The translations under genes were made by a program, and so were the position numbers. From Rhynchopus sp. YZ270_cl-10 (Eukaryota): a stretch of 64,000 nucleotides of DNA. The stretch lies in assembly GCA_964035575.1 (NCBI GenBank), contig OZ037837.1, positions 1,674,001 through 1,738,000 on the forward strand. The letters are read 5' to 3'. Under the pieces are notes generated by a model. The model saw only the letters and a program-made list of their open reading frames with translations. It ran no database searches and was not told the origin of the DNA. Of the stretch, positions 1 through 40,800 are shown piece after piece; position 1 is the stretch's first letter; every line of letters begins with the position of its first letter.

Positions 1-3000
1 AGCTCCTTCTGCAGGCGCTGCGTGTCAACAGGCATGTTGTGCAGCTCAGCATCTGCGACACTGAGCAGCAGCAAAGGCCTCTGCAGGTGCGTGACACACA
101 CACATGCGACTCCGACTACGGGGACGATCCACACCTGGGGGAGGTTGCGGCACAGCGCATGATGCACATCCAGCAGGTCATCAACATCAGGTGTGCGCAC
201 AACAGAGGCACCATTGTGTCAAGCACGTTCTCCGACCTGGGTGACACCTGGCCGCAGTGCGCCACGGAAGCGCTGTACGACGTGGACGTGGTGGACATGG
301 CCTTCTCGGACCTGTTCGACACCCGCCAGCGTGAGGCTGTTCTCTTCATCCGCCTTCTGCAGAAGGCGGTTGACGCACAGCAGCAACAGGAGCTTGCTTT
401 CAGCAGGACGTACCCAAAGCTCCCAGGCGCGCTTGTTGCTGCTGCGCACTTCTGCGACCTGTGCGACATTAAGTTGCTTCTGGACATGCACTGCAACCCC
501 TTCGAGACGGACGCGTTTGGCGAAACACCACAACTGAAGATGTGGCGACGTCTTCACAGAGCCACAGACACTCATCTTATTCGCAGTACTAAATTGCCCC
601 TCGTGATGCGTGACCTACACGTGTGTCTGGACAGGCTCCAGCCCACAGTGTTCCGGTACGACGAGCCACTGTGGAAGGTGAAGAACTTTGCGCTGGAGGT
701 GATGCGGATGGCAGACGACCGTGATCACATCTCTCTCGCAGCTGAGCTGATCCGCAACGTGCGCACGAGCTACGAATCCTGGTGTGAGGAATCCTTGCTC
801 GAGAACGAGGCTGCCACGTTGTGCGCCTCTGAGTGCGCCAAGCGCGCTACTGAAATGATGCAGGACACCCTGGACCTGTGCAAGAAGTGCTCCGCCCTGA
901 ATGTGCTGCAGTGCCCTCTCCGCCGTCTGGAAGCAAGCCTCTTCTGTATCAAGGTGTTTTGCTCGTATGGGAACGAGCTCCTTCCCCTTGTCACACCAGT
1001 GCAGTGGTGTGACAATAGTAAAGCATGTGCAGCCAAGATCCATACACGCAACACGGGGCGCAGGAGGAGGGAAGAAGGTTGTTACCAGAGTTACGCAGAA
1101 ATGTGCAGCAATAATCACGTACATGAGAATTGGTCTCGTCTTGTCGAGGCGAAGCTTCCACGCAGAATGGACAAGAACGGAATCCACTACTTCGAGCATG
1201 AAGTTGCTTTGCAGGACACGGAACCATGGTCAGACATGCAAGAGGCAGATGTGTGCAGCACGCATCGCATATACGAAGGCAGCTACGTTACAAAGCAGCA
1301 GTATCTGGACATGGTGTGGAGCACAGCCGAGGAGGAGCCGCCGCAGATACGCAGGCAGAACGGTGATGGCTACTTTGTCTTCAAACACGACTGGGATGAA
1401 GACATGGAGGGTGGTGCCTGGGAGGACGGCAAGAAGGAGACACTGCCGACGCTTCCGACGCTTGTGGAGCAGTTGCGGCAGCCCTCTCTCAACCTGTACG
1501 ACCCAACGGTGTTTGGTAGCCGCATTGAAACGGAGGAGAGCAGGGCCCAGCTGCGCACGTGGTCGAGGCTGTGGGGTGCTGTGAACGCTGTGCTGGTGAC
1601 GAGAATGGAGAAGGAGCGGGTGCTCTTCCGCAAGGTGGAGAACGTGACGGACACTGCTGTGCTGCTCCACCACCTCCACCTGAAGCGTGGTGAGCTGTAC
1701 TGCCAGCCCGACATCACTCTCTGGGATGTGGAGCGCCGCTACAGAAACCGTGCTTTGGGTGACGACAACGACATCGAGGACAATACAGCAAGGACGAAGC
1801 TGGAATTCAACGACAATTCAGGAAGACTGTGGGAGGCGTCAGAGCGCAGATGGACAGGGAGGGGTGGCGAGGAGGCTGCGTATGAAGGCGAGCTTTGCTA
1901 CGAACATGAGTTCAAATACAAATGCATGCAGGCACACAAGCAGGCACGCAAGGAAAGAGGGGAGGACGTGGGGTTTGATCTGAACACGTTACTCAGATGG
2001 GAAGATGCGAAGCCTGAGGACCCTTTCCTGACACACGTCCCTGGCGAGCAAGTTGAGGTGGAGACACGTAAGAACAGCAGCACCATGACAACAATTCTCT
2101 TCAGCGCGCGTGGGAAGATGCACGGCGAGTGTGTGGGGCTGCTGAGCGACGGACACGACTTCCTCCTCCCTGCACTTGAGGTGTTTGTTGTGGAGGATGT
2201 GCAGGCACGTGGCGCGTGCCTCCATGTCAGCCTCGTCTCACGTGGCTCGCTGCTGCGCACGGACAAAGAGCTTCGTGCCTGGTGCTCTGGCATTCAGAGT
2301 ACTGGCCTGGATTCTGTTTGGGGCAAGAACGGTGATATGGATGAGTGTTTGCGTCCTGAGAGCAAGACAGCAAAGGACGATACATTGGACAGGGAGAGCT
2401 TCTTGAGCACAGACGAGTGTGACGTCTTCTTCAGCCGCAAGTCTCAGATGCTCCGCGGAACGAAACGGCAGATGTTGTTGCACGATCTGGAAGACGTCGT
2501 CAGACCTGTGAACGCTTTTGCATCGCACAAAATACAGGGTGCAAACGGACAGATGACGAACCATGTGGGGTGCACGCTGCCGGAGGCTGTGCCCACTACG
2601 TACCGCCCAGGGAAGACGTTTTTGAGTGGGTTGAACCGCAAGAAGCGTCCTGAAGGGGATCACACTGCAGAAGGCATGCCAAGAGCATACGGTGACGAAC
2701 TCGCACACATCCCCGACGTAGAACTCGCGGAGGATTGGGAGAAGGACATGGATGTGAACGATGTGGTCACTGTTTCGGGAGCATCCATCCAGGCCTACCA
2801 CGACAAGCACACAGACGAAGACGCGTACTTCAAGACGATAGTCAAGCATGCGCCTGACACACCTGGGCAGTGCCCCCCGCCTGTGAGCGATGTGTACGGA
2901 GGGAAGGAGTTCCGCATCACTGTCGGGGAGGTGCAGCAGCTGCTGAAGACAACCACGATAGTCACGTCGCCGTCCCTCCCACTGCGTTTTGTGCAGTGTC

Positions 3001-4523
3001 TGATCGGCTCGTTCACGTCTGCGAAACGGCGTCTGCTGTTCTTCAACGTTTTCCGTGCAACGTCGCTGCTCAGCATCGGCACTGAAGAAGATTGGGAACG
3101 TGAGAAAAACGTCGCCAGAAGCACTGCGAAGAACACGCTTGAAACGAGCTACACGCGGCAGCGCGACGCACGTGATGTCCTAACTATGCCGGACGTTGGC
3201 CATAAGCAGAATGAAGTTAACAGCGGAAAGCTGTACCGCAACCTGGTATTGATCGAGATCAACAAACAAATACTTGCATATCTGGACGGCAACCTTGATG
3301 ACGACGGTGCAGAGCCTATTGAAGTCACCCGTGACAAGTTCACATTGTGGATGTCCACCGTACAGGCGGAACCTGCACAGTACGGCTTCACCTCACAGGC
3401 ACATGCGAGACTTACGTTGGCGAAGTCTATGGTCGAACTGAGCACAGAAATGTGCGTCTCGCAACAGGGCTTCTCCTTCACTTCTGGCACGGAAGGTGAG
3501 CACAGCCAGCTCTGTGAGAAGACGCACCACAGCATCGCCATCCTTGCAGCCACTGGGATGGGCTTCTGTTACCCAGGACCCACCCTGCGTGAGGCACCAA
3601 AGTACTTCGTGAGAACACCACGTAAAGGACAACAGTCACACGAGGGTTGGGCCTACTTCCAAGAAGGCAAGCAACGTGAATTTGTCGAGTGTCTGAAGGT
3701 GCTGTACACATGCATCTTCGAATCTGCAAGGAAACAGCGTGTGCGGAACATGTGTGCTGGTGGGATGGGTCTCGGTATTTCCGCACAGAACCTGGGGGAT
3801 GATCTGAGACTTCAAGTTGCAGAAATGTACTTCCGTGCGCAGTTCGAACTCCTTGCAGAACAGGATTGGGGTTTTGAAAACGTATGCGTGTCTTATGCGT
3901 TGTCCTAAATAGTGGCATTTTTCAAACATCTAAATAATGTAGCACAACTTTTGGAAAAACGCCATTTTGGGTTAATACCCTCAATCCTTACACACACACA
4001 CAACGAAGATTTCAAAAAGGCAAAAACAGAAAAGATGGAGAAGATACTGGTGGACAACTCTATCTTCTTTCAAAGACTTCCCAATCATCTTTTCGCTTCA
4101 CCTTTAAAACCACTCTTATAACAGTACTGGCTGAGCACAAATGATTCCACCGACTTGTTGGCATGCCGCGTCTTGAAGAAAGGACTGCACGAGTGTGGCG
4201 ACTACAACAACGAGGCACAGGGGTTGTATTTGAGGTGCAACATCGTTCTGCACAAGAAGGAGGCGAGGTTTCTTGCGGTGCGCCTCGCCCAGCTGAAGAA
4301 GTCTCCTGCGCTGTTGTCTTCATCTGACGCGCAGGCGTTGCTGCAGGGACAGCACGGCATGTACTGGGAGGAAGGCAGGTCTTGGAACTATCTTGGCGAA
4401 GGAGACTTGTCGGCCACCTCGACAGCTGTGTTGATGAACTACAACATTGCGAAGAACGCACTTAACCTCGACTCTTCTGCATTGAACAGCAACGAAGGTT
4501 TTATTCAGTGCATTCCAAAGTGA
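1..4523 (+). CDS. Giant ART/macrodomain-like protein, tandem copy 1 (5' part outside window). Exons <1-3881 and 4125-4523; intron 3882-4124
   Basis: Near-identical to 12309-16678. The ORF reads ...DWGFEN, then donor GTATGC at 3882; acceptor TTATAACAG ends at 4124 and rejoins in frame (YWLSTNDSTDLLACRVLKK...) with the 4155-4523 ORF. Contains an LRR end, an ankyrin-like motif, a degenerate ART and a GGMGLG macrodomain-like C-terminus. Confidence 0.85.
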
Positions 4524-7537: not shown

Positions 7538-8740
7538 TTTGGGGGGGGGAAAAAAAAAAAAAAAAGAAGTTGGCTGGGGGTTTTTGGGTTTTCGGGACCA
7601 CTTCTTCCACCCCACCCAAAATCCTGCCTCACGAAAAGGAGACTGAAATAAAAAGGAGGGAAAAATTATGCCCGAGCATCCGAATTGGTCAAACGCCGAA
7701 GGAAAAGGAAGCATGCAGCATGGCGAAATAATAAAAGTAGCGTACCGTGCGCCTGCGGCGCAGCTTGCAATCCACCCTTCCCATGACAGAGTTTGGCAGT
7801 AAAAATGTGCAATTTTAAGCACAATTTTTTGAAATGTTGCGTACCGTGGCTTCGCTTTGGGTGCCCTTACCGCCCTTTCTTTGTTGTAAATGTACTGAGG
7901 TTGACAGTTCGTGTGCCTGGCCATGGAGTTGGATAACCGAGGAATTCTCACATTCCTCCGGAGCCCCCCAACTTGAGCTGGGTTGGGGACCCGGGCTCAC
8001 CGAGTTTCAACGAAAACCCCCAAAACCTATATAATCCCCTGTTTAGGTCTTGTGTGGTGAAAAAAAATCCTGAAATCCGGTGACCAGTTTTTTTGAAAAT
8101 TTGAAAACCCTATATAATACCCTGCTTTGTTACTGTGAAGAAAAATTTTTTCGTTTGCCAAGTCGCATACTGCGAGTTTTTCTGGATGCGCAGGAAAAAT
8201 GACTGGGGAGTGTTGGTGGCTCCGTGACGCCACAGAGCCGGCACACTCATTGAGTGCCTCACAAAACCTAAAATTACTTACACTATTTATTTCAAATGTG
8301 TGTTTTTGGGTTTAAATAGCCGTTTAGGGGGGTTCTACTCCACTAAATAAATCGAGCAAAAATATGGTGAACTCAGAGGAGGGGGTCATTCGGTTCGAAA
8401 AACACAATTTTGGGCAATTAGAGCCAAAACAACACCCTAAAATACAAGAATCAGTTTTGGAAAATCCCACTTTTTGGCTGAGTGTGTAAAGTAACCAGAC
8501 CAGGTTGTGAAAAATGGCCGTTGGTTTTTTTTTGATTGGGAAGATCGAGCTAAATTTGTTTTTATCTATTGTCTTCACGCTTTATCGTTGTTGTTGGGGT
8601 GGGAAATAAAAGTCTGCGAGTGATGAGGAATACGGGCCTGCACGTTGTTGCAACATCCACAGCCCTTCGGACTGTTGGGATTTGGATTCGAAAGCATGCA
8701 CCACACACCCACCACACCATGCAGAAAGCAACACACCACT

Positions 8741-11700
8741 ATGTACGGCTCACGCAATATGGCGAAAGAATACGAGAAGGAGCACAACATCCAGAAGCTG
8801 GTCGACGAGCTTGTGAACGAGCTGCTTCGCTTCAGGCCGTGCGACCCGTTGGCGCACCTGGCGTGCTACATCGACGGCCTGCGCGGGGCAGCGCCTGCGA
8901 CGGACGTGGAGAAGAACAAGCTTGCGGCAGAAGGCAGCACTGCGGCGTGTACAGAGGTGTCGCACCCCTCGAGCACATCATCATCGCTCGAAGCGGCGCT
9001 GGGGACACTCTGGGACGCGTGCAGACCCAACCACGCGAGGTTCAAGGAGCGTTTCGAGGAGGACGTTTCGCAGGGCCTTCGAGATGTGCTTGCGAAAGTC
9101 TTCGCGAGGGACAGGCCGGGAAGGGACAGGAGGCAAAGGACACACCTGCAGACACAACTGAAGTTCGATGCTTCGCCAGACGTGACGCAAGCAAATGCGG
9201 GACAAAGTGTGCAGCTGGTGGACCCCTACAGCGCCGAGTACAGACCCACGCAGAGTGTGTCGGAGGTGGTCGACGGGCTTGCAGACTGGTTCGGACCTGG
9301 ACGGAAGCTGTGGCCGCGGAGTGCTGTGGACAGGGTGAAGCACAACTGCACCTTCATGCAGCACAAGCACAACTACGGGGAGGTGGCGGAGGTGGTGGTG
9401 CCGCTCTTCATCTATTCGATTGCGATCATGACGGAGTACACGTGGGTCTCCTCGGATGGGCACGGACGGTGGACGCCGTTCTCGTCGGCGCAGGCAGTTG
9501 TGCTAGAGAAGCACTTCCTTGCGCACTGCACGAAGGACGGGGCACCCCTGTGCGGGGAGGACGAAGACCTGACACTTCCACGGGGGTTGCCGCTTGCACC
9601 ACTGAACGGCACCATCACAAACGCAAGGCGTGCGCTTGCAAGGGTTGCAGAGGACACGAGGGATGAGGGCACCACCCCCAGCAGGCAGCCGGCCAGTGCC
9701 GCCTTCGAGTTGCCCACGCAGATGCTGACCACGCAGATGCAGGTGGTGTTCTGCGACGGGCGTATGGTGGGCGGCAGCAGCAGCGAGGGGGACGAACGGG
9801 GGCGTGGCTTTGCAGGGAAGGTTGGTGGGGTGTTTGCGGGCTGGGAGGGGCTCACGGTCTTTGTGAGCACGCCCTTCCTTGAGGGTTGCAGATGTCGTGG
9901 TGACACCACCACCAGCACCACGGACACTGCCACTGCTACTTCCACCAGCGACACGACCAAGGACGTGGCAAAGGAGTTCTACATAGCACGGTACAAACTG
10001 GCAGACGTGAGGGCAGAGTACGAGGATGCACACACGCAAGGCACGGCGGATGCGGAGACACTCGCGAGCCTGAAGAAACGTGTTGCGCTGCACCCGTACT
10101 CGGACTCGGTTGCGTGGCTTCCGGCCCCGTCCTGCATCTTTGAAGGCCTCCACACTGCGACGGCGGACATGCAGCACACACAGACGATGTCTCTGTCTCT
10201 CGCACGACTGCCCCCACCAGGTGTGCTGGAGTATTTGCACAGCAGACGCACCTGTGAGCACCTTGAGATTGCCGAGGGTGGTCTGCACTATCTGCGTTCG
10301 GAGGATGCGTTTGCGTGTCGTTCGCGTGAGGAAAAGGTGCTGCTTGCGGGGAGGAAGGAGAACGTGATGGATACAGAGACAGCGTACGTCCGCTGTGACG
10401 ACAGCTGCTGCTTCTTCTGTGCGGTGGGTGCGCTGAAGGACCGTTGCGTGCGCAAGATGAACCAGCAGCAGTACGACCACGGTTGCAAGGAAGACCTCGA
10501 CGCACTGAGTACCGAGCACACACAAGACTACAGCCCGTTCCAAGCGCTCGTGGCACACAAGGTTTCCCCCGAAGGCCAGGCACCGACGCCGCTGACGATC
10601 CTGCACGCTCTCGACATCCAGGCCGTGTACTGGTCCTCGGCAGGTGTGACAGACTGGACACACGTGGAACCCCTGCACGCTTCGCTCTCTGGGAAGAACA
10701 AGTTCATTGCCGTACCTGGAGCAGACGGCCCACCGTGTGTGCTGTACAGATCCTGCTGCGAGTTCGCGGACCAGCCGTACTACGTCTTGAACGCGTCGAT
10801 GCGTGATGCGCAGAACAAGGCACACAAGACGCAGATCACAGTGACGGGCAAGGACTGGAGGAGCGAGGTCTTCTGTGCACGCAGCGTCGCGTCGCTTGGG
10901 AAGGGTATGGGCACGCTCCGCGAGGTGGCACGCAGGCACGCGAATTTGAGGACCTGCCTCAGAAACCTGATGAAGCTGTCGCACCAGACGTGCTTCGAAT
11001 CCGAGACGAGCGGGGCGTCGCTCTGGTACACGTCACGTGACATCATCGACAAGAAGGACGACGCCCTGCCGCGAAGCGACGAGGACTACCTGGACCCTGT
11101 GCACTACAGCGGGCTTGGCTACTACCGGTACACGGCACGGTACGACACGGAGGCACCGGAGTACATGGAACCAAGCACGGTGAGGGTGCAAATGGGGGAC
11201 TGGGTGTCGGGGCAGGTGCGGCCGCTGCTGTTCTACGTGAACGAGGCAATGAAGGAGATGTCGCCTGTGCTGTCGTACCGGGGGTGGCGGTGTGCGCCGG
11301 AGACAGAGCAGAAGTGCTACCGCGGGCTTGGGAACGCACGCCTGGCCCGTGAGCTCTACGCAAGGGGTAACGCGGTGGTGTGGTCTGCGTTCTCGTCGAC
11401 GTCGACGGACCAGTTCTACTCCACCCCCGCGAGTGGGATGACAACGTCAGTCTTCATTGTTAAGGGGTCGTCTTGCAGGCTGATCGCACCCTGGAGCAGG
11501 TTCGGCCGTGGAGAGGAGTGGCTGTTCCCACTGAACTCAATGTTCAAGGTGGACTCGATGCTGACGGAGGACCAGCAGTCGATTCTCGGGAAGAAAGACT
11601 TCCAGCTCTTCGAGATCTCTGAGGTCGACGAGCTGTCGATGGAGAAGATCCGCATCCGCTGCTCCCTGACAAGCGCAGAGACGGAGGAGGTCGTGCGTGT

Positions 11701-14700
11701 GGTCTTCTCAGCAGTGTCTGCAGTGGACTCTGGGAACGGTGTTCTCGACCTTTCCCTGAAGAGCGCAAGCGAAGGCTGTGTGAATGCGAAGTGGGTGTAC
11801 ACAGTTGTGGTGAACTTCGACGCACTCCAGCTGTCTCCTGTGATGACGAGCAACAGCACGAAGCTTTGCACTGGCAACATGGCCGACAGCTGGAGCAGTT
11901 TCCTGTCCCAGGCTCACAATCGGAATCGCTTCACCCACGAGCACCCCTGTGTGATCTTTGACCAGTCCTCGGAGGAGGGGCGGCAGGTGCTCAACGCAGT
12001 GTCTTTGGTTCTCGGCCTGCGCCACTCGAAAGCGCTCACGTTTGTTGAGGTGACGTGCCACCTGAAGCCCTCGAAGGCGAAGGACGCCCGCAGCCTGCAG
12101 GAAGAGAACGCAAGCTCGGGCTACTACCAGCTGAAGGCGATGAACCCGACGGAGCAGTGGGAGGTGAGCATCGAGATGCGGCGTCAGGACCGGGAGGGGT
12201 ATGCTGTTGGCCCTTCGGGTGCTGTGCTGCTGCACCAGATCATCGCGAAGCAGGTGCACCTGGTGAGGATTGACATCCGCAACAACGGTGTCGGTGTCGA
12301 GGGTGCAGAGCTCCTTCTGCAGGCGCTGCGTGTCAACAGGCATGTTGTGCAGCTCAGCATCTGCGACACTGAGCAGCAGCAGCAAAGGCCTCTGCAGGTG
12401 CGTGACACACACACATGCGACTCCGACTACGGGGACGATCCACACCTGGGGGAGGTTGCGGCACAGCGCATGATGCACATCCAGCAGGTCATCAACATCA
12501 GGTGTGCGCACAACAGAGGCACCATTGTGTCAAGCACGTTCTCCGACCTGGGTGACACCTGGCCGCAGTGCGCCACGGAAGCGCTGTACGACGTGGACGT
12601 GATGGACATGGCCTTCTCGGACCTGTTCGACACCCGCCAGCGTGAGGCTGTTCTCTTCATCCGTCTTCTGCAGAAGGCGGTTGACGCACAGCAGCACGCA
12701 GCACAGCAACCAGAGCTTGCTTCCAACAGGGCGTACCCAAAGCTCCCAGGCGCGCTTGTTGCTGCTGCACACTGCGGAAACCTGTGCGACATTAAGTTGC
12801 TTCTGGACATGCACTGCAACCCCTTCGAGACGGACGCGTTTGGCGAAACACCACAACTGAAGATGTGGCGACGTCTAAACAGAGGCACAGACACTCATCT
12901 TATTCGCAGTCCTGACTTGCGTCTCGTGATGCGTGACCTACACGTGTGCTTGGACAGGCTCCAGCCCACAGTGTTCCGGTACGACGAGCCACTGTGGAAA
13001 GTGAAGAACTTTGCGCTGGAGGTGATGCGGATGGCAGACGACCGTGATCACATCTCTCTCGCAGCTGAGCTGATCCGCAACGTGCGCACCAGCTACGAAT
13101 CCTGGTGTGAGGAATCCTTGCTCGAGAACGAGGCTGCCACGTTGTGCGCCTCTGAGTGCGCCAAGCGCGCTACTGAAATGATGCAGGACACCCTGGACGT
13201 GTGCAAGAAGTGCTCCGTCCTGAATGTACTGGAGTGCCCTCTCCGCCGTCTGGAAGCAAGCCTCTTCTGTATCAAGGTGTTTTGCTCGTATGGGAACGAG
13301 CTCCTTCCCCTTGTCACACCAGTGCAGTGGTGTGACAATAGTAAAGCATGTGCAGCCAAGATCCATACACGCAACACGGGGCGCAGGAGGCGGGAAGAAG
13401 GTTGTTACCAGAGTTACGCAGAATTGTGCAGCAATAAGCACGTACATGAGAATTGGTCTCGTCTTGTCGAGGCGAAGCTTCCACGCAGAATGGACAAGAA
13501 CGGAATCCACTACTTCGAGCATGAAGTTGCTTTGCAGGACACGGAACCATGGTCAGACATGCAAGAGGCAGATGTGTGCAGTACGCATCGCATATACGAA
13601 GACAGCTACGTTACAAAGCAGCAGTATCTGGACACGGTGTGGAGCACAGCCGAGGAGGAGCCGCCGCAGACACGCAGGCAGAACCGTGACGGCTTCTTTG
13701 TCTTCAAACACGGCTGGGATGAAGACATGGAGGGTGGTGCCTGGGAGGACGGCAAGAAGGAGACACTGCCGACGCTTCCGACGCTTGTGGAGCAGTTGCG
13801 GCAGCCCTCTCTCAACCTGTACGACCCAACGGTGTTTGGGAGCCGCATTGAAACGGAGGAGAGCAGGGCCCAGCTGCGCACGTGGTCGAGGCTGTGGGGT
13901 GCTGTGAACGCTGTGCTGGTGACAAACGAGGAGAAGGAGCGGGTGCTCTTCCGCAAGGTGGAGAACGTCACGGACACTGTGCTGCTCCACCACCTCCACC
14001 TGAAGCGTGGTGAGCTGTACTGCCAGCCCGACATCACTCTCTGGGATGTGGAGCGCCGCTACAGAAACTGTGATTTGAGTGACGACAACGACATCGTGGA
14101 CAATACGGCAAGGACGAAGCTGGAATTCGACAACTCAGGAATACTCTGGGAGGCGTCAGAGCGCAGATGGACAGGGAGGGGTGGCGAGGAGGCTGCGTAT
14201 GAAGGCGAGCTTTGCTACGAACATGAGTTCAAAGACAAATGCATGCAGGCACACAAGCAGGCACGCAAGGAAAGAGGGGAGGACGTGGGGTTTGATCTGA
14301 ACACGTTACTCAGATGGGAAGATGCGAAGCCTGAGGACCCTTTCCTGACACACGTCCCTGGCGAGCAAGTTGAGGTGGAGACACGCAAGAACAGCAGCAC
14401 CATGACAACGATTCTCTTCAGCGCGCGTGGGAAGATGCACGGCGAGTGTGTGGGACTGCTGAGCGACGGACACGACTTCCTCCTCCCTGCACTTGAGGTG
14501 TTTGTTGTGGAGGATGTGCAGGCACGTGGCGCGTGCCTCCATGTCAGCCTCGTCTCACGTGGCTCGCTGCTGCGCACGGACAAAGAGCTTCGTGCCTGGT
14601 GCTCCAGCATTCAGAGTACTGGCCTGGATTCTGTTTGGGGCAAGAACGGTGATATGGATGAGTGTTTGCGTCCTGAGAGCAAGACAGCAAAGGACGATAC

Positions 14701-16698
14701 ATTGGACAGGCAGAGCTTCTTGAGCACAGACGAGTGTGACGTCTTCTTCAGCCGCAAGTCTCAGATGTCCCACGGAACGGAACAGCAGGTGTTGGTACAC
14801 GATCTGGAAGACGTCGTCAGACCTGTGAACGCTTTTGCATTCCATAAAATGCAGGGTGCAAACGGACAGATGACGAACCATGTGGGGTGCACGCTGCCGG
14901 AGGCTGTGCCCACTACGTACCGCCCAGGGAAGACGTTTTTGAGTGGGTTGAACCGCAAGAAGCGTCCTGAAGGGGATCACACTGCAGAAGGCATGACAAG
15001 AGCACACGGCAACGAACTCGCACACATCCCTGACGTAGAACTCGCGGAGGATTGGGAGAAGGACATGGATGTGAACGATGTGGTCACTGTTTCGGGGGCA
15101 TCCATCCAGGCCTACCACGACAAGCACACAGACGAAGACGCGTACTTCAAGACGATAGTCAAGGGCAGCGACACGCCTGGGCAGTGCCCCCCGCCTGTGA
15201 GCGATGTGTACGGAGGGAAGGAGTTCCGCATCACTGTCGGGGAGGTGCAGCAGCTGCTGAAGACAACCACGATAGTCACGTCGCCGTCCCTCCCACTGCG
15301 TTTTGTGCAGTGTCTGATCGGCTCGTTCACGTCTGCGAAACGGCGTCTGCTGTTCTTCAACGTTTTCCGTGCAACGTCGCTGCTTAGCATCGACGAAGAT
15401 TGGGAGCGTGAGAAGAGAGTAGTAAGAGATAATGCGCAGATGATGCTTGACCTGAGCTACACGCGACAGTGCGAAGCACGTGATGCCCTAACTATGCCGG
15501 ACGTTGGCCATAAGCAGAATGAAGTTAACAGCGGAAAGCTGTACCGCAACCTGGTGTTGATCGAGATCAACAAACAAATACTTGCGTATCTGGACGGCAA
15601 ACTTGATGACGACGGTGCAGAGCCTATTGAAGTCACCCGTGACAAGTTCACATTGTGGATGTCCACCGTACAGGCGGAACCTGCACAGTACGGCTTCACC
15701 TCAAAGGAACATGCGAGACTGACGTTGGCGAAGTCGATGGTCGAACTGGGCACAGAAATGTGTGTCTCGCAGCAGGGCTTCTCCTTCACTTCTGGCACGG
15801 AAGGTGAGCACAGCCAGCTCTGTGAGAAGACGCACCACAGCATCGCCATCCTTGCAGCCACTGGGATGGGCTTCTGTTACCCAGGACCCACCCTGCGTGA
15901 GGCACCAAAGTACTTCGTGAGAACACCACGTAAAGGACAACAGTCACACGAGGGTTGGGCCTACTTCCAAGAAGGCAAGCAACGTGAATTTGTGGACCGT
16001 CTGAAGGTGCTGTACACATGCATCTTCGAATCTGCAAGGAAACAGCGTGTGCGGAACATGTGTGCTGGCGGGATGGGTCTCGGTATTTCCACACAGAACC
16101 TGGGGGATGACCTGAGACTTCAAGTTGCAGAAATGTACTTCCGTGCGCAGTTCGAACTCCTTGCAGAACAGGATTGGGGTTTTGAAAACGTATGCATATC
16201 TTCTGCGTTGTCCTAAATAATGAATTTTTCAAACATCTAAATAATGTAGCACAACTTTTGGTTCAAAGACTTCCCCATCATCTTTTCGCTTCACCTTTAA
16301 AACCACTCTTATAACAGTACTGGCTGAGCACAAATGATTCCACCGACTTGTTGGCATGCCGCGTCTTGAAGAAAGGACTGCACGAGTGTGGCGACTACAA
16401 CAACGAGGCACAGGGGTTGTATTTGAGGTGCAACATCGTTCTGCACAAGAAGGAGGCGAGGTTTCTTGCGGTGCGCCTCGCCCAGCTGAAGAAATCACCT
16501 TCGCTTTTGTCCGCATCTGAATCGGAGGCACTGCTGCAGGGACAGCACGGCATGTACTGGGAGGAAGGCAGGTCTTGGAACTATCTTGGCGAAGGAGACT
16601 TGTCAGCCACCTCGACAGCTGTGTTGATGAACTACAACATTGCGAAGAACGCACTTAACCTCGACTCTTCTGCATTGACACCGAAAGATACAGTGTGA
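8741..16698 (+). CDS. Giant multidomain protein (~2600 aa), tandem copy 2: Dpy-30/RIIa-like motif, WWE-like motif, ART, LRR, ankyrin-like motif, degenerate ART, macrodomain-like C-terminus. Exons 8741-16189 and 16318-16698
   Basis: 2523-aa ORF. Motifs: KEYEKEHNIQKLVDELVNELLRFRPCDPLAHLACYI (D/D); YTWVSSDGHGRWTPFSSAQAVVLEKHF (WWE-like); CYRG...WSAFSSTS...RFGRGEEWLFP (ART); IDIRNNGVGVEGAELLLQAL (RI-like LRR); AAAHCGNLCDIKLLLDMHCNP..DAFGETP (Ank). The intron 16190-16317 (GTATGC...ATAACAG) keeps frame. Start codon uncertain (8741 or 8759). Confidence 0.85.
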
Positions 16699-18183
16699 TG
16701 TGCAACGAAGACACGAGAGATGATCTGTCGCGATGAAGATAATGAAAACTTCGAAACTCTATGGGACAGATGAGTCGGCTGTTGCGGGTTCCACATTGCA
16801 GTGTAAGAGGCCGTAGCCCAACTGCGTACTGCACTGGCGTGGGCTAGCGTATTAACAAAGGCAAAGGATGTTGTTTGCAGTTTCCTAAATAATAAAAACC
16901 CCGTCTTTGGTTTGGTTGGTACGCAACCCACGTCATACGCTTTTTTGGAAACTTGGTTGTATTAGTGCTCCACTATAGCTTTTCAACTTACCTTCCTTCA
17001 CCCCCCTGTAAGGGTAACCGTAGGTGAAGTAAGGTATAGTATTGAAATCGATGTGGGGGGGGGAAAGGGTCAATTTTACAAAACCAGATTTTGAGGAAAA
17101 TTTTAGCTGAAAATGGGCCCCACGTATAAGCAACCGGGCTCATATTTCTCAAAATTTAAGTAGTCAAAAAATTGTCCAATTTTCGAGATTGACCCCACCA
17201 CTGCACGGGCGGAGCCCAAAAATGCAATTAAGGACCCTTTTTAATTTGTTCTCTTGAAATGTATAATTTCATGTTTTCGCGAAAAAAAATTACAACTGAT
17301 CCCTGCAAGGGTTGAAGGAAGGTGGTTGAAAACAACAGTAACAACAAGGACGAGTAATTGCTAAGGAAAAACGGGTGTGCTGTGGAAAACTCCGCGCGAT
17401 TTTCGAAACCACCGTAGCATCCTGGCGATTTGCTGGAGGTGCTGATGCGCCTGGTGTGATCGATGTGTTGTAGTCTGTGCATTCTGTGTTCCTTCCGCAC
17501 TGCTCCAACGACGACGACAATGTGGGGACCCTGTGGACAAAAACGAGCTGGAACACGCCGAGCCTGCCGAGCCGACGTCCAACAACGCTGTCGAGCAGAT
17601 GGTGCTGGACGAAGAGGACAGCCCCCCTTCTTGAACGTTTCAGATGCTGGCGTCAGTGGGTCTGGCAGCTTACGAAGAGCGTTAGCATACCTGCAGAAGA
17701 GCAGAATGCTGGGCGTGTTGTAGATTATTTCTACAGGATGGAGTTCCACACCACACCCCGTTTTTTTTCCGATAGCAATTACTTGTTTTTTTCTTCGTGT
17801 GACTGAGTGTGGGGATGCGTTCAAGAATTAAGCTCTTCCCCCCAAACCCCCTTTGTCTCTAGTTTTCTTTATCCAAACGTCGAGTGGATGCGTAATAATA
17901 TTTCTTCAAAACGTCCAGAAATGGATGTCAAAAAGGAAAAAACCCTTAGCCTGAAGTACAGAAATGAGATGAGTGCACAATAGAAGGGAATAAACAAAAA
18001 CTCTCAGACATTTGAATCATTTCCCAGGACAAAGTATTTGTAATAAGGTTTGCGGGTTTTTTTCTTTTAGACATATTCTTATCATGTTTTTTGATATATC
18101 TCTCCCGCAATCATGATTTTGTTTTTTCGTTTTCCAACTATGAAAGCAAAGTCTTCACTGCAATGCACATTCCACCCTTTTTT

Positions 18184-18808: not shown

Positions 18809-19610
18809 TGGGGGGCTCCGCCCCCCAGACCCCCAGTCGCTTCGCGGCTCAGGGCTGGGCTAAGCCTGCCCTTCGCCGCGAAGCGCCTGGGGTGGTGCTT
18901 GGTGCACAGGATTAGGACATTAAAGACATGTCCTGCATTTGAGTGGATGTCCAGCCCCGAACTCGTCTGCTGTCAGACGTATTTCTCTTGAGACTGCAAT
19001 GGAGAAGACGCTTGCAACAGCTTCATCAACCGCACACGCGAGGAGGAGTGCATGTGTTGCACATATGTCCGGTCAAAGAGATCAGAGAGAGTGCACCAAT
19101 ATATGAGATGTTCACACCGTACTTTATACTCGTGAAAAACTATCCCACGCGTGAACATCGAGCATTCTGATTTTCTTTAACGCCGATTCTTTTGAAAATG
19201 TGTCAGTAGGGTAACCAAGGGGTGATAACAAATATGTACTCCACCAATCGGGTCGAGAAAAAATGTCGTGAATTCTGAGAAGTGGGCCTTCCACATGCGG
19301 GTAGCTCACAAACAACAAATTCAAAACGCTGTTTGGCCTGCCTGCGACGTTGTACCGAAGGTGCATATGAAGGCCTGTTTTCCAACATCCATACCCCCCC
19401 TTTACGGAGGGACAACGGGTAGAACCACGGAGAATCGGTTAAGGTGCCACACCAGAAATATTTTTTTGAAATATTTTTTGGGATTGAAATCAGCGGAGCG
19501 AAATGAGTTAAATGTGGGGTCGTAGGCTCAAAAAATTGCATCTGTGGTTTATGAAGTGAACGAGGCCCAGAAGTATACGCCTAACGAGATCTTGTCTGAT
19601 ATGTGAATCG

Positions 19611-21527
19611 CACTGTACTGTACTGTACTGTACTGTACTGTACTGTACTGTACTGTACTGTACTGTACTGTACTGTACTGTACTGTACTGTACTGTACTG
19701 TACTGTACTGTACTGTACTGTACTGTACTGTACTGTACTGTACTGTACTGTACTGTACTGTACTGTACTGTACTGTACTGTACTGTACTGTACTGTACTG
19801 TACTGTACTGTACTGTACTGTACTGTACTGTACTGTACTGTACTGTACTGTACTGTACTGTACTGTACTGTACTGTACTGTACTGTACTGTACTGTACTG
19901 TACTGTACTGTACTGTACTGTACTGCACTGCACTGTACTGTACTGTACTGTACTGTACTGTACTGTACTGTACTGTACTGTACTGTACTGTACTGTACTG
20001 TACTGTACTGTACTGTACTGTACTGTACTGTACTGTACTGTACTGTACTGTACTGTACTGTACTGTACTGTACTGTACTGTACTGTACTGTACTGTACTG
20101 TACTGTACTGTACTGTACTGTACTGTACTGTACTGTACTGTACTGTACTGTACTGTACTGTACTGTACTGTACTGTACTGTACTGTACTGTACTGTACTG
20201 TACTGTACTGTACTGTACTGTACTGTACTGTACTGTACTGTACTGTACTGTACTGTACTGTACTGTACTGTACTGTACTGTACTGTACTGTACTGTACTG
20301 TACTGTACTGTACTGTACTGTACTGTACTGTACTGTACTGTACTGTACTGTACTGTACTGTACTGTACTGTACTGTACTGTACTGTACTGTACTGTACTG
20401 TACTGTACTGTACTGTACTGTACTGTACTGTACTGTACTGTACTGTACTGTACTGTACTGTACTGTACTGTACTGTACTGTACTGTACTGTACTGTACTG
20501 TACTGTACTGTACTGTACTGTACTGTACTGTACTGTACTGTACTGTACTGTACTGTACTGTACTGTACTGTACTGTACTGTACTGTACTGTACTGTACTG
20601 TACTGTACTGTACTGTACTGTACTGTACTGTACTGTACTGTACTGTACTGTACTGTACTGTACTGTACTGTACTGTACTGTACTGTACTGTACTGTACTG
20701 TACTGTACTGTACTGTACTGTACTGTACTGTACTGTACTGTACTGTACTGTACTGTACTGTACTGTAGTACTGTACTGTACTGTACTGTACTGTACTGTA
20801 CTGTACTGTACTGTACTGTACTGTACTGTACTGTACTGTACTGTACTGTACTGTACTGTACTGTACTGTACTGTACTGTACTGTACTGTACTGTACTGTA
20901 CTGTACTGTACTGTACTGTACTGTACTGTACTGTACTGTACTGTACTGTACTGTACTGTACTGCACTGCACTGTACTGTACTGTACTGTACTGTACTGTA
21001 CTGTACTGTACTGTACTGTACTGTACTGTACTGTACTGTACTGTACTGTACTGTACTGTACTGTACTGTACTGTACTGTACTGTACTGTACTGTACTGTA
21101 CTGTACTGTACTGTACTGTACTGTACTGTACTGTACTGTACTGTACTGTACTGTACTGTACTGTACTGTACTGTACTGTACTGTACTGTACTGTACTGTA
21201 CTGTACTGTACTGTACTGTACTGTACTGTACTGTACTGTACTGTACTGTACTGTACTGTACTGTACTGTACTGTACTGTACTGTACTGTACTGTACTGTA
21301 CTGTACTGTACTGTACTGTACTGTACTGTACTGTACTGTACTGTACTGTACTGTACTGTACTGTACTGTACTGTACTGTACTGTACTGTACTGTACTGTA
21401 CTGTACTGTACTGTACTGTACTGTACTGTACTGTACTGTACTGTACTGTACTGTACTGTACTGTACTGTACTGTACTGTACTGTACTGTACTGTACTGTA
21501 CTGTACTGTACTGTACTGTACTGTACT
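19611..21527. repeat. (TACTG)n pentanucleotide satellite, ~1.9 kb
   Basis: Directly visible; rare CACTG and TAG variants. Confidence 0.99.
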
Positions 21528-21536
21528 CCCAATCCC

Positions 21537-21778
21537 CTGTGTATACTGTGTATGTGTATACTGTGTATACTGTGTATACTGTGTATACTGTGTATACTGT
21601 GTATACTGTGTATACTGTGTATACTGTGTATACTGTGTATACTGTGTATACTGTGTATACTGTGTATACTGTGTATACTGTGTATACTGTGTATACTGTG
21701 TATACTGTGTATACTGTGTATACTGTGTATACTGTGTATACTGTGTATACTGTGTATACTGTGTATACTGTGTATACT
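21537..21778. repeat. (TGTGTATAC)n 9-mer tandem repeat
   Basis: Directly visible, adjacent to the pentamer array. Confidence 0.98.
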
Positions 21779-22711
21779 ACCTGTGTGTGACCATACCCCA
21801 GATGGTCTAACGAGTGATATGAGCATATTCTCCAGGTACAATATATACCCGGAGAATCCATTGGAGCAAGAATTTTGCACTTTTGAGCATCACAGATTAC
21901 ATGTTGCCATTTTTGCGGTCATAATATTTTTTCAAATGGCAAAGGCAATTCCTTAAGGAATTACAGGGAAAATCACCGTTTTGGGTCTCTCTCTCTATGG
22001 GTGATTGGGTTTTAGTCACTCAACGAATCTGGTCGATTTTTTTTGCGTGTTCATAGGTTTTACCAGAAAAATCAATTAGAGCAAGAATTTTACGGTTTTG
22101 AATAGTTGTTCTTTATTTAAAAAAATACCCAGTTTGGACAAAAATTTGGGATTGAGTGTTAAAATGTTTGATGCACATTCCTTTTTTACCTTTGACACAA
22201 ACAACAAACGAACGACTAAATAAAAAGGGGTATTTCACTTTCCCCCCTTTTTGCAAATTAACCAATCTAGATAAGACGCAATACATCTGCATGGTGGCTA
22301 TGTCATTTACTACACTTGCAAGGGAAGGCAGACATCGGAGGTACCGCGTCAGTTTCACCGCAGATGTCCTCTGATATTGTGACATGCTGAATACGCAGCA
22401 GATCTGTTGAACAACCGAAGCAGTAGTAAAACCAAACTTAACCGTAAAAACCCCCTGACTGATGGTGCGTATGACGTGAGTAGCGTACCAACTAAACAAA
22501 AGACGAACGGGGTTTTTATTATTTTCATGCAAAAGTACGCAGCAATGATTATTCGTTTGAACGTGCCTTTCCTCTCCTCCCCACCCCTTCCTCACATCCA
22601 GACAAATACACACTACACGAAACCCTGTGGGGAGCAACACCACATTCCCCCTCTCCCTCCTCTTGGTCTTCTCCCACCCAAGTTCCCTTTATCTGTTTTT
22701 TTCCGGATTCT

Positions 22712-36544: not shown

Positions 36545-37805
36545 CCTAGGGGGGGTCAAATGCACTTAAAAAAACGATACAAACGTCATTTTTTCGAGTT
36601 TTTGATAAAAACGCATTATTTTGGATGATTGAGTAGAAATTTTGACCAAGAACCTCTCAAAAACATCGTGGGGGGTGGTTTTCACGCCAGAGGGGGATCA
36701 CATGCACCCCAAATGGTGAAATTCCAAAAAAAAAAAAAAATTGCCCATGACTGGTACCGGCCCCACCAATTCCTTAAGGAATTAAATTCCGATTTTTTTC
36801 ATTTTTTTTGCGATTTTTTTGCTCAAAAATTGACGATACCCTGTTTTCGGGGCAAAACTCTCTAATTTTGGGCAGTTCCGTGTGAAAATATGCAAAAATA
36901 GTCAAAAATTGGAAAATCGTTAAGGAAATCGTTAAGGAAATCCTTAACGACTTAACGTGGGGTACCAATCATGGGCAATTTTTCAATTTTCACGTTTTAG
37001 CACCTCCTGGGCCCGAAAAATGGGTCAAAACCGACCGACAAACAGTTTTCCACACGATATGTGTCACATTTTCGGGTCAGATTCACTTAGAAATGCGTTT
37101 TTATCGAAAACTGAAAAAAGTGGGTTTGTATCACCCATTTGACCGCCCCTACTCCCCCCCCCCGCCCCGCCCCCGCCCCCCTCTCTCCCGTTGAAGTAAT
37201 GGTTCCCTTCGCACCTCTCTGCCCGTAGTAACAGTTCGGCTTCTGAAAGAAAGGCAAAAAAATATTTTTAAAAAAGCAAAACAAAAACAAAAAAAGAGAA
37301 AAAAAAAACAAAAGAATGCTCGCTACCTTTCTAATCGCACTCCCCCAACCAATCACAGCCCCTTTTTGTTTCAACCTTAGCATCGACGTCCATTCACGGA
37401 TCCTCCGACCACCCCCCTACAGTACGAGAAATTGTCCCCCGTTTTTCCGTACGAGATATTGTCCCCCCCTCACTTTTCCCCCCATGCAGGGTGGACAATT
37501 TCACGGGGGGAGGGTCGGTATACGAAATATTCGAATTTTACAACCTACCCCCTCACCCCCTCGGACACAAGATAGTAAGGCTAGATACTCAACAAAGTTT
37601 AATGCAATCTTGCTTGTCGTTACCTTTTGCAGTTAACATCAAACTAAAATGCTTTTTTCGGCAAAAAAACAAAAGCCAAAATAATACACAGAGAACAAGC
37701 GAATTTTTCAACATACAAACGATCTTTATATACCCCCTCACCCCCTCATCCCCAACACCAACGCAGGTGTACCCAACGCAACGTGACAGTATCCTTAGTG
37801 AGAAG

Positions 37806-40800
37806 ATGGGATCCGGAGCGTCGAAGCCTGAAAAAGACAATATTGCAAAAGCAATTACAGGGAAGGAGAGGCCCGTGGACGCAGCGGACAGCGTGGACGG
37901 GAGGACAATGCTGCACAACGCTGTTATTGCGGGGGATGTGGAGGCAGTGCGGTTTCTTGTGAAGAATGGGGCAGGGAACGTGCGTGACAGGGACGGGAAG
38001 GTGCCGCTGTGGTACGCACTGCAGCACAGGGACGCGGATGTGCGGGGCCGACTTGAGGCGGAGCTGGGGGCGCATGCAGCAGAGATCCTTGTGGAGGTGG
38101 AGGTGGCTGTGGAGAGATACCTCACTGATGGTGTCGCGACAGGGGAGGCTTCCGAAAGGAGCAGGCATGTGACATCAGACAAGAACACAGACGCGGCAGC
38201 AGGCAGACCCGGTGAGGATGACGTAGAAGCACTGCGGCGCACAGACGGACGGAAGGTGGAGTGGCTGCGTAAGGAGGAGAACCACACAAGCAGCAACAAC
38301 AGCAGTGGAGGTCAAGACCTGCTGTGCTGGCTGCGTGGTCTGCCAAATGTGGACCCGCCATTGGGCTACACAGACGAACACGTGCGACATATGGAAGCGG
38401 GGTTCCGTGTGGTGTGCAGGCGTCTGCTGGAGGACATCGCTAGCCGTACAAAGTCTTCCACCGCAGGAAAGCGCAAGAAGAGCATGGGGACACATGGTGG
38501 ACACGTGGAGGTGGAGGACTGGATGGCGGCACGCGACCCGTTTGAGCTGCTGCTGTCGGGGTTTCTGTTCACGTCTGACTGTGTGGAGTATGTGCTGGAC
38601 AGCGGCGGGGATGTTGTGTGCGACGAAAAGGGCACACCGCAGATTGCGAAAGGGCCGGACGGGAAGCTGCGGTACATCAGACTGACGGAGCGGGCTGTGC
38701 TGGACAACCATGGGAGTGCTGCTGATTCACAGTCGCTTGCGCTGTACATGACGATGAACACTGCGATGCGTGCTGTGGGGTGGCTGCCTGCGGTGAAGGA
38801 GTGGAAGGGGACGACAGCACCGAACGTGTTTGAGCTGTCGCCCGCACCCCCGCAGCTGCACGTGATTGCGACCTTTGCGCCGCTGATCCGTGGTCTGGAC
38901 CGGCTGATTGGGAGCCGTCGGAAGCAGCTGCGGACTGTGTTCCGCGGGATCAATGTGAACGTGTCTGCGAAGTACGCGCTGAATACACACATTGTGTGGA
39001 ACTGCTTCACGTCAACAACACTGAAGCGGGATGTGGCTCAGAGCTTCATGTACGGGAAGGGTGGCACGTTCTTTGTGGTGGTGGCGAAGGAGGGTGCTGC
39101 AGACGTGAAGTTCTCGTCTGTGTATGCTTCGGAGGACGAGCTGCTGTACACAGCGAACATTGAGTACCGTGTGCAGTGGAAGCTTTCGCCGACGCTGCTG
39201 CGGATGATGGGGCTGCGCTTTGACGTGATTGTGATGCAGGAGGTGTGTTCTGGTGTGGGTGAGACGAGCCCGGCTGAGCAGGTGGGTGCGCTGCAGGAGG
39301 TGATGGGACACACAGTCGCGTTCTTTGAGGACTACCTTACGCAGTACGTGGAGGGGCGTGTGGGGGACGACACACGTGTGGATGAGTCGGAGACACGTCC
39401 GCTGATGGAGGAGGTGCGGAGGTGGCTTCGTACACGTGGAGGTGTGAAGCGGGCGTCCGCAGCGTGCACAGAGTCAGGAGTGGATACGAAGAAGGGAGCT
39501 GTGCAAAGGAAAAAGGTGAAACCCATCAAGAAGAAGAAGAACAGCACAGCAGAGGGGAAAATAGAAACAAAAGGCATACGGCCAAGACCAGTTGCTTCTG
39601 GTGTGCTGTGTGTGATCGGAGAAGGAGGGAGCGGGAAGACGTCTGCTTCGATTGCAATTTTGAGCGACCTTGCAACGTCTGCGAGGAAGAGCGGAAAGAC
39701 CAGTAGCGAAGACACAAACAGGAATAGAAACAGCGTGGTTGCTGCGGATGCGAAGCCGTACTTCCCTGTGTTTGTGGCGCTACCGACTGTGAAGCAGCAC
39801 CTGCTTGAGAAGGGAGGGCTGGACAGATTTGTGCTGGAGTCGTTTGCGCTGCGGGAGGCGGACCGTGCGTACCTTGCGGAGACGTACGAGGTGGTGCTGG
39901 TGCTGGACTCTCTGGACGAGGTGGGGCTGACGAAGGAGGACGTGCGTGCTGTGGTGGCTGAGGGTGGCCTTCTGTGCCGGCACCCGTGGGTGGAGGCACA
40001 CTGCAGCGTTGTTGTGACTGTGCGTGGTGAGTACCTGAAGGGTGTGGACACGTCCCCGTCTGGTGTGTGCGGTGCTGGTGTATGTGCTGTGTACATGCAG
40101 CCGTTCACAGAGGTGGATGCGAGAACGTACATCAAGCGTGCAAACACAGCCTGGGAGAAGGAACACAAAGAGGAGAAGAAGAAGGCAGATCTCATGGTTT
40201 TCGTGCGTGAGGAGGACATTGAGGGACTTGTGCAGCTGCGGAACCCGTTTGTGCTGCACATGGCGTGCCACGCGCAGTGCAGTGGGAAGGCTTCTGAGGA
40301 GGTGATCTACGAGACCTACTTGAAGACGTGGACGAAGAAGGAGATGGCGTCTAGTGGAGTTGCTGTTTCGGATGTGTCCTTGGAGGATGTGGTTCGTGCA
40401 GGGGAGCTTGTTGCATGCAGGATGCTGGAGACAAACGAGTGGCAGGGGACTGTGGGTGTGGCGTCGGAGGTTCTTGATTCGCAGCACAGTGTGTGTGAGG
40501 GTGTGCGGGATGCGTGCTTCCGCTGCTTGCCGTTCCGTATTGAGGACTTTGGAGAGGAGCGGAGTGCATTCACGTTCCGACACAAGTCGCTTGGGGAGCA
40601 CCTTGCAGCACGGCGGCTTGCACGTGATCCAGCAGGGACACTGAAGACACTGGTGCAGCGAAGCTTCAGCAAGGACTCGCAGCGTGTGCTTGGGTTCTTT
40701 GCGGCTCTGGTGTGGGCTGAGAGTGAGCTGTATGAACGTGCCTCCAGAGCGCTGCTTGCGGCTGTGAAGGGAACACGCAAAGGTGCAGGTGAGTCAGCAG

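Follow-up and report, generated by a model that had tools for sequence, protein, structure and literature searches.

Macrodomains that erase ADP-ribose from arginine were first described in 2022-2024, from bacteria, fungi and arthropods. In Legionella pneumophila, one of them, Larg1 (Lpg0081), is paired with Ceg3 (Lpg0080), an ADP-ribosyltransferase (ART) with the R-S-ExE motif that is encoded by the adjacent gene (PMC9191684). Another type, DUF4804, which includes MavL, bears the arginine-specific signature WDxx[S/A]xPGN[D/E]; the covered text of the MavL paper (PMC10951314) records it from no organisms other than bacteria, fungi and arthropods. Arginine-specific ARTs seemed absent from unicellular eukaryotes, as stated in the part covered of a 2010 review, while a transferase and a hydrolase within one chain are known from PARP14 (PMC10499325, PMC10470015). 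Here, we analyzed a gene at positions 8741 to 16698 of a 64,000-nucleotide stretch of Rhynchopus sp. YZ270_cl-10 DNA (assembly GCA_964035575.1, contig OZ037837.1, positions 1,674,001 to 1,738,000, forward strand), which is called the window in its entirety. A first-pass annotation, made from the sequence alone, had seen in this gene a giant polypeptide that possibly fuses a reader, a writer and an eraser of ADP-ribose. Our reading, to which we assign a probability of roughly 55%, is that the gene encodes a diplonemid protein of 2,609 amino acids with an ART and a Larg1-type macrodomain, likely a catalytically disabled paralog that, alongside its active siblings, has been retained as a scaffold or decoy.

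The window gene is real, and its two exons are joined, reading from the ATG at 8741 to the stop at 16698. The parts of the gene and its two principal domains are as follows.

8741..16189, + strand: exon 1, codons 1-2483
16190..16317, + strand: intron, GT-AG, 128 nucleotides, phase 0; position common to paralogs and a Diplonema papillatum gene model
16318..16698, + strand: exon 2, 126 codons; holds the macrodomain's adenine-binding and catalytic loops, which are degenerate
9218..11635, + strand: ART1, a cholera-class (R-S-E) ART split by two inserts, residues ~160-965
14723..16650, + strand: Larg1-type macrodomain, spanning the intron, residues ~1995-2594

The open frame that contains exon 1 extends from 8627 to 16216, and no stop or frameshift interrupts the 7.8 kb of the gene. 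Use of an alternative ATG in the same frame, at 8696, would make the protein 15 residues longer; the homologs begin at the position of 8741. Among the nine AG sites in 16200-16420, the one at 16317 yields the longest open exon. The Diplonema papillatum gene model ends at the same codon as exon 1 of the window gene, and several genomic gene models end there. The joining of the last exon, as the first-pass annotation had it, is borne out by three transcript-derived homologs (Flectonema, Hemistasia and Artemidia), which are continuous over the joint, and by a contig from one (X5) of the four sequencing runs aligned to 15850-16800, which joins 16189 to 16318 with GT..AG ends and has zero cover within the intron. 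It is to be noted that the type of run X5 is unrecorded, its RNA-like status being judged solely from the exact GT..AG joint, and that a processed DNA copy may be an alternative source of this contig. Moreover, the contig matches the clade of the window gene (copy B) and its tandem twin (copy A), and does not separate the expression of the one from that of the other. The motifs listed in the annotation indeed lie where it had placed them, namely YTWVSS at residue 233 (nucleotide 9437), YRGL at 860 (11318), FSSTST at 884 (11390), GEEW at 924 (11510), LFRKV at 1736 (13946), IFESARKQRVRNMCAGGMGLGIS at 2428 (16022), and those of exon 2. Four features had escaped it: the two inserts that interrupt ART1, the segments resembling leucine-rich and ankyrin repeats between the two ART-like regions, the 94%-identical tandem twin, and the degeneracy of the catalytic residues in this copy.

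The C-terminal tail had been likened to the MavL/DUF4804 class of macrodomain, with structural comparison to MavL, Larg1 and PARG proposed as the check. Pfam found no match in the macrodomain region of the window protein and of three homologs. The macrodomain of the Flectonema homolog P0003 (homologs are designated by P numbers) was examined as an AlphaFold model, which, on a 47-row alignment, reached a predicted local distance difference test (pLDDT) score of 93.8. In VIA, this model matched Larg1 with a Z of 17.2 (root-mean-square deviation 3.8, 285 residues aligned), the next unrelated row having 9.0; Drosophila CG2909/CG3568 scored 11.4-12.0, MavL 11.0-11.6, and the T. curvata PARG 8.7. 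Foldseek also listed Larg1 first, and then the Drosophila DUF4804 proteins and MavL, with expectation values (E) of 8e-7 to 1e-3. At the level of sequence, a profile of 18 distant members (A4) found Larg1 in PDB at E 3.4e-5, both of its matches being Larg1 and no other protein, and the alignment paired the G-M-G-F-F loop (GxGxF), the adenine Asp D351 and the N-P-S-D372 of Larg1 with the motifs of the family. Larg1 was not detected significantly in the PDB searches with profiles A1 (nothing) and A2 (E 1.2), and it was missed by the single-sequence and 5-sequence PDB searches; the histone H3 matches of profile A2 (E 0.4-2) were discarded as chance. The Pfam MavL model scored in just one of the 18 distant members (E 0.021). 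Giant-virus proteins (Sylvanvirus, ChoanoV1) match the macrodomain fold as well. Since the fold matches to Larg1, DUF4804 and MavL are joined by the sequence match to Larg1, the original inference was right; as judged from model and profile, the tail is a Larg1-type macrodomain, the nearest solved relative of which is Larg1 rather than MavL.

The writer portion was equally recognizable. ART1 matched the Pfam ART family as a segment at 25.6 bits, against a cut-off of 22.3, and a model of residues 150-990 (22-row alignment, pLDDT 76) aligned in VIA with HopU1 and XopAI (Z 17.1) and with ART2.2 (Z 15.7) over model residues 7-816. Because the alignment with these ARTC enzymes covers the whole span, ART1 is a single domain with two large inserts of about 450 and 130 residues, ~580 altogether, consisting of N-terminal helices (~160-228 and ~677-691) and a core (~821-965). 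It has the ARTC fold with the R-S-E triad, R861, S-T-S and the catalytic E926 all being kept, which substantiates the YRG/SSTS/GEE core noticed earlier. No signal peptide was seen at the N-terminus, judged from the sequence by eye, and ART1 is putatively intracellular.

The residues on which catalysis would depend were then compared between the family and the window copy. A profile of five rows (four proteins) collected 274 representatives at E <=0.001, and all family counts given here are from the best 150 of these 274. In Larg1, hydrolysis is almost lost in the mutants F283A, D351A, D372A and E387A, the last two of which no longer bind either (PMC10989772). The family has Phe or Tyr at the end of the diphosphate loop, equivalent to F283 of Larg1 and F227 of MavL, in 106/130, and it keeps the equivalents of D351 (121/137), P370 (119/139), D372 (117/139) and E387, taken as the second Glu of GEED (116/135), while G378 is invariant (136/136). 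A Glu-Glu-Asp motif occupies the place of V-E387-S of Larg1, and a Glu follows the Trp in 108/137. At the positions of F283, D351, P370, D372 and E387, the residues of the window copy are S, E, A, E and G, respectively. Its diphosphate loop, GGMGLGIS, is a degenerate version of the family LPMGLGVF and ends not in an aromatic residue but in Ser2450 where the family has Phe, and the exon 2 loops read KKEA for KDA, SASE for NPSD and GEGD for GEED. Of the catalytic-loop signature D...G-N-[D/E], the family retains the D and the G but for the most part neither the N nor the D/E, and the window copy also has Glu for the Asp. The family does not have the PARG motif GGG-x6-8-QEE, its own motif being xGEED, without GGG or Q.

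At the family level, fusion of a writer with an eraser, as first proposed, holds. The R-S-ExE motif of the ART is kept in 20/20 scoreable homologs of the same architecture, from which one isoform duplicate and one broken model were excluded; among 16 such giants with a fully scoreable macrodomain, 10 keep all five eraser residues and 6 have changed at least one. Since 10 of the 16 keep both sites, fusions in which both are intact are common in the family. The window copy, however, is altered in both. Its ART1 has G-x-E in place of E-x-E and thus lacks the Glu at position -2 that determines or marks arginine-specific ARTs (PMC3102197); E-x-E is present in 7/7 close paralogs, and Gly at -2 in no other member. 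A four-residue deletion after STS has taken part of a conserved helix, the four residues being present in all four paralogs of 85-90% identity and all three of 60%, and this region has 12 additional bases in contigs from two runs. Run contigs also show paralogs that carry the canonical residues at the eraser codons.

It is highly improbable, in our view, that the window polypeptide itself reads ADP-ribose through a WWE domain, writes it and erases it, as the first-pass annotation had envisaged. All five scored eraser positions and the first Glu of E-x-E differ from the family, and the WWE match is a half-motif (E 0.056-0.5). The sites for the two opposing activities, intact in many relatives, are both degenerate here. 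Nonetheless, both folds are present, the segment matched by Pfam ART scores above its cut-off, and the Asp that follows E-E, found in 124/136 of the family, is retained; by spacing, the distal-ribose acid (E387 in Larg1, D333 in MavL) is the second Glu of GEED, which is Gly in the window copy, but if this next Asp is the real equivalent, the window copy keeps it. A different possibility is that the changes have retuned the enzyme, with ART1 acting as an NAD+ glycohydrolase or modifying a non-arginine acceptor, and the macrodomain being only a weak binder. The complete R861, S-T-S and E926 set would suit such an enzyme, as would the ART core, still 85% identical to that of P0024, and ARTs that differ at -2 do use other acceptors (PMC3102197). 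The deletion within the conserved helix and a Gly at -2 that is unseen in other members speak against it, and we regard it as quite unlikely.

How the altered gene has evolved could be followed by comparison with its tandem twin, the 3' half of which lies in the window.

3..4523, + strand: copy A, 12.3 kb upstream, its 5' half beyond the window; 94-95% identical protein
exon 1 to 3881, intron 3882-4124, exon 2 4125-4523, + strand: parts of copy A

Copy A shares the F283, D351 and E387 changes with the window copy and retains D372; in the window copy, D372 and P370 are altered further. Because these three changes are shared, the selection measured between the twins continued after they arose. 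The ratio of non-synonymous to synonymous substitution rates (dN/dS) was 0.44 over 1,288 exon 1 codons and 0.2 over 120 exon 2 codons, with a range of 0.36-0.49 against copy A; in the macrodomain core, although already degenerate, it was 0.24-0.33. Single-base codon changes numbered 47 synonymous and 56 non-synonymous, where 23-29% would be expected to be synonymous, and neutrality was rejected under each of three transition biases (p 4e-7 to 3e-4); in the macrodomain core, there were 14 synonymous and 11 non-synonymous changes (p at most 0.005). We read this as retention of the fold under purifying selection following the loss of catalysis.

The same comparison bears on the alternative that the window copy is a redundant duplicate heading for loss in a birth-and-death family, having no role but no stop acquired yet. 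Such a gene would hardly show the above dN/dS values, 7.8 kb of uninterrupted frame, or an intron that is spliced in a contig matching its clade. Decay would, on the other hand, account for the copy-specific deletions (four residues in the ART and three in the WWE-like motif), the E-to-G change, and the alteration of D372 and P370 beyond the state of copy A, and at least eight paralogs could cover the function. The macrodomain core has also evolved faster than that of P0024 (19-20 versus 5-7 unique residues with both outgroups, p 0.004-0.012), the ART core doing so with one outgroup only, in a comparison of 14 tests with uncorrected p values. We consider decay unlikely, but it retains some weight because the ART lesions, seen only in the window copy, could mark its onset.

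The preferred reading, a disabled paralog kept for a non-catalytic role, builds on gene structure, fold class, residue states, the paralog set and purifying selection, all of which are shown. In intact members, ART1 would transfer ADP-ribose from NAD+ to arginine, as the E-x-E suggests, and this modification would be bound and removed by the C-terminal macrodomain, as the fold and the equivalents of F283, D351, D372 and E387 suggest; a single chain could then form a self-resetting switch, the fused counterpart of the Ceg3/Larg1 gene pair of Legionella. The pseudo-ART, LRR-like and ankyrin-like parts described below may choose the targets, and the Dpy-30/RIIa-like start may dimerize or dock the protein. 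The window copy would fold and bind partners while writing and erasing poorly or not at all, its presumed role being that of a decoy or a non-catalytic partner.

Several points weigh against this reading. All the activities, the substrate and the decoy role are what we infer. The modeled macrodomain is not that of the window protein but that of P0003, whose identity to the parts encoded by the two exons is 37% and 51%. The E387 assignment comes from spacing to Y383 rather than from superposition. The purifying signal spans the 3' half only, may in part be older than the ART lesions, and could have been distorted by gene conversion; the lesions themselves, confined to the window copy among the eight close paralogs examined, are not datable against copy A, the ART of which lies outside the window. 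At the E387 codon, Glu accounts for 36 of the 41 depth units in X5, and the degenerate clade is thus a minority in this run. Even in intact members, the eraser's specificity for arginine is plausible rather than established, since the N379 of Larg1 and its E380, for which attack on the arginine bond has been proposed, are not kept: within the same 150 representatives, N occurs in 16/137 at the former position, and the latter is Y/F/W, with D/E in at most a few of 137.

The remaining parts of the protein are as follows (LRR, leucine-rich repeat).

8783..8869, + strand: Dpy-30/RIIa-like docking helices, weak, residues 15-43; neither Pfam match, RIIa (E 0.007) nor Dpy-30 (E 0.11), reaches its cut-off
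9437..9532, + strand: half of a WWE-like motif, with which the first ART1 insert begins; Pfam E 0.056, matching 3-29 of the 67 profile positions
12197..12370, + strand: one or two LRR-like units, residues ~1153-1210; LRR_6 E 0.12, PDB LRR protein E 0.064; conserved pattern
12746..12865, + strand: ankyrin-like repeat, residues ~1336-1375; conserved pattern; Ank matches in P0019, P0020 and P0023
13238..14575, + strand: ART2, an insert-bearing region that is likely a pseudo-ART; it retains the R, lacks STS, and has Asp where the catalytic Glu would be

The suggested WWE reader comes down to a weak half-motif. What is present inside the ART1 insert is the N-terminal half of the motif, which was never significant: Pfam gave 14.3 bits against a cut-off of 21.1, a profile of five true WWE domains gave E 0.53 (hhalign P 0.12), and Atlas gave 0.82, a lead only. 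In the window copy, the motif is three residues shorter than in near paralogs. The 50 VIA rows of the ART1 model (841 residues) contained no WWE structure; this is not an exclusion, because ART matches filled the list. The second ART-like segment, ART2, separated from ART1 by the LRR-like and ankyrin-like segments, fared better. An initial hhalign against ART1 was without a match (E 0.38), and that against the ART1 profile had P 0.26, while the canonical ART profile aligned colinearly over 107 columns (P 0.0014) at a probability of just 17.8%; in Atlas (0.88, also a lead), the ten best matches all belonged to the ART clan. In 18 homologs, the R of this region was kept in 10 and the full triad in none, and ART2 is plausibly a pseudo-ART. 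As for the docking start, comparable N-terminal helices occur in several homologs, although the Pfam matches fall short of the cut-offs.

The macrodomain family has no Pfam model and comprises at least 274 representatives; the closest named relatives of the window protein are diplonemids, and the window gene has at least eight paralogs. A macrodomain tree, in which 93 of 251 domain rows were kept, does not unite all ART giants, and no origin or transfer is claimed because its basal support is low. P0019 and P0020 combine a true WWE (Pfam E 1e-10), an R-S-ExE ART, ankyrins and the macrodomain, and P0020, which keeps all scored residues, has a putative reader-writer-eraser architecture. The order is reversed in P0088, from an MMETSP transcriptome, and P0108, where the macrodomain is followed by ankyrins and an E-x-E ART. 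P0165, a close paralog represented by its exon 1 part only, has an intact ART and the same degenerate macrodomain loop, and is a candidate writer-only protein. In P0010, P0011, P0026, P0028 and P0030 (3,200-4,450 residues, one from Sulcionema), one to three N-terminal Larg1-type domains with intact motifs precede ankyrins and a polycystin/TRP-type channel; these are candidate ADP-ribose-gated channels, for which TRPM2 would be a convergent counterpart. SIR2-like fusions were seen with WWE in P0073 (Petalomonas) and P0091, and without it in P0103; NADAR (weak), protein kinase and EF-hand fusions occur among P0128, P0032 and P0061. A bacterial member, P0119 (L001:4992-7214), lies in a metagenome-assembled genome of a marine Legionellales; a genome locus search returned only this locus for P0119 and none for P0126, and the bacterial members had no plasmid match.

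The multiplicity of paralogs, the repeated loss of eraser residues, and the SIR2, NADAR and channel fusions suggest defense or conflict signaling. We would tentatively propose, well aware that it may prove wrong, that a so far undescribed form of arginine-ADP-ribose signaling, based on the Larg1-type domain, operates in diplonemids and other protists, with giant self-resetting writer-erasers (some with true WWE), writer-only paralogs, dead decoys like the window gene, SIR2/NADAR fusions, and channels in which one to three such domains, next to ankyrins, serve as ADP-ribose sensors in convergence with TRPM2; this pool, from protists that feed on bacteria, may relate to the origin of Legionella Larg1.

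Elsewhere in the window, a second ART gene (37602-42866, + strand) encodes ankyrins, an ART (Pfam 26.4 bits, E-x-E seen), a weakly matching STAND-type nucleoside triphosphatase, and pentapeptide and WD40 repeats, a layout like that of nucleotide-binding LRR (NLR) proteins. It is followed on the same strand by a ubiquitin-like and BspA-type LRR gene (43566-44936) and an ankyrin-repeat gene (46496-48082). Open frames on both strands of 19500-21950 were rejected as genes, this being a simple-repeat tract of ~2.3 kb. The flanks at 8000-8630 and 16880-17500 carry very high-depth repeats in all four runs aligned, and the tandem copies are probably surrounded by dispersed elements of a mobile or repetitive kind.

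Literature on diplonemid ADP-ribosylation, eukaryotic Larg1, DUF4804 and protist macrodomain-ART fusions, mostly without subscription journals and supplements, contained no account of this family, nor did the covered text of the survey PMC9503650, supplements aside. The family extends the Larg1-like domain to euglenozoans, in which two orders of fusion to R-S-ExE ARTs occur. Its members are direct test subjects for the balance of writing and erasing within one chain, and also for the basis of arginine specificity in the eraser, since the catalytic loop is intermediate between those of Larg1 and PARG; the intact paralogs, rather than the window gene, are probably the best to study.

When compared with described systems, Larg1 is the closest, having the same permuted macrodomain fold and sequence homology that includes NPSD. 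In contrast to the Larg1/Ceg3 pair, writer and eraser are here parts of one eukaryotic polypeptide; the catalytic loop of the family is longer than that of Larg1, without N379/E380 and with a PARG-like Glu-Glu pair, and it is degenerate in the window copy. MavL and CG2909/CG3568 are more distant in fold (Z 11-12), and share a Gly-rich diphosphate loop that precedes the catalytic loop, but their WDxx[S/A]xPGN[D/E] signature is not found in the family. ART1 has the fold of vertebrate ART2.2 and of bacterial R-S-ExE ARTs (HopU1, XopAI and Tre1-type toxins; Z 15-17) and the family shares their motif, but differs from them in being broken by inserts, putatively intracellular, and followed by a likely pseudo-ART and an eraser. 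Lastly, PARP14 (and PARP9) unites transferase and hydrolase in one chain, as the family does. PARP14 carries a WWE domain and is built from a diphtheria-class PARP domain and MacroD-like domains, whereas the family has a cholera-class (R-S-E) ART, which is not a PARP catalytic domain, and a Larg1-type domain. Since the two are built from different domain classes, the designs are convergent; the one-chain writer-eraser was already known from PARP14, and it is the combination of a cholera-class ART with a Larg1-type macrodomain that sets the family apart.

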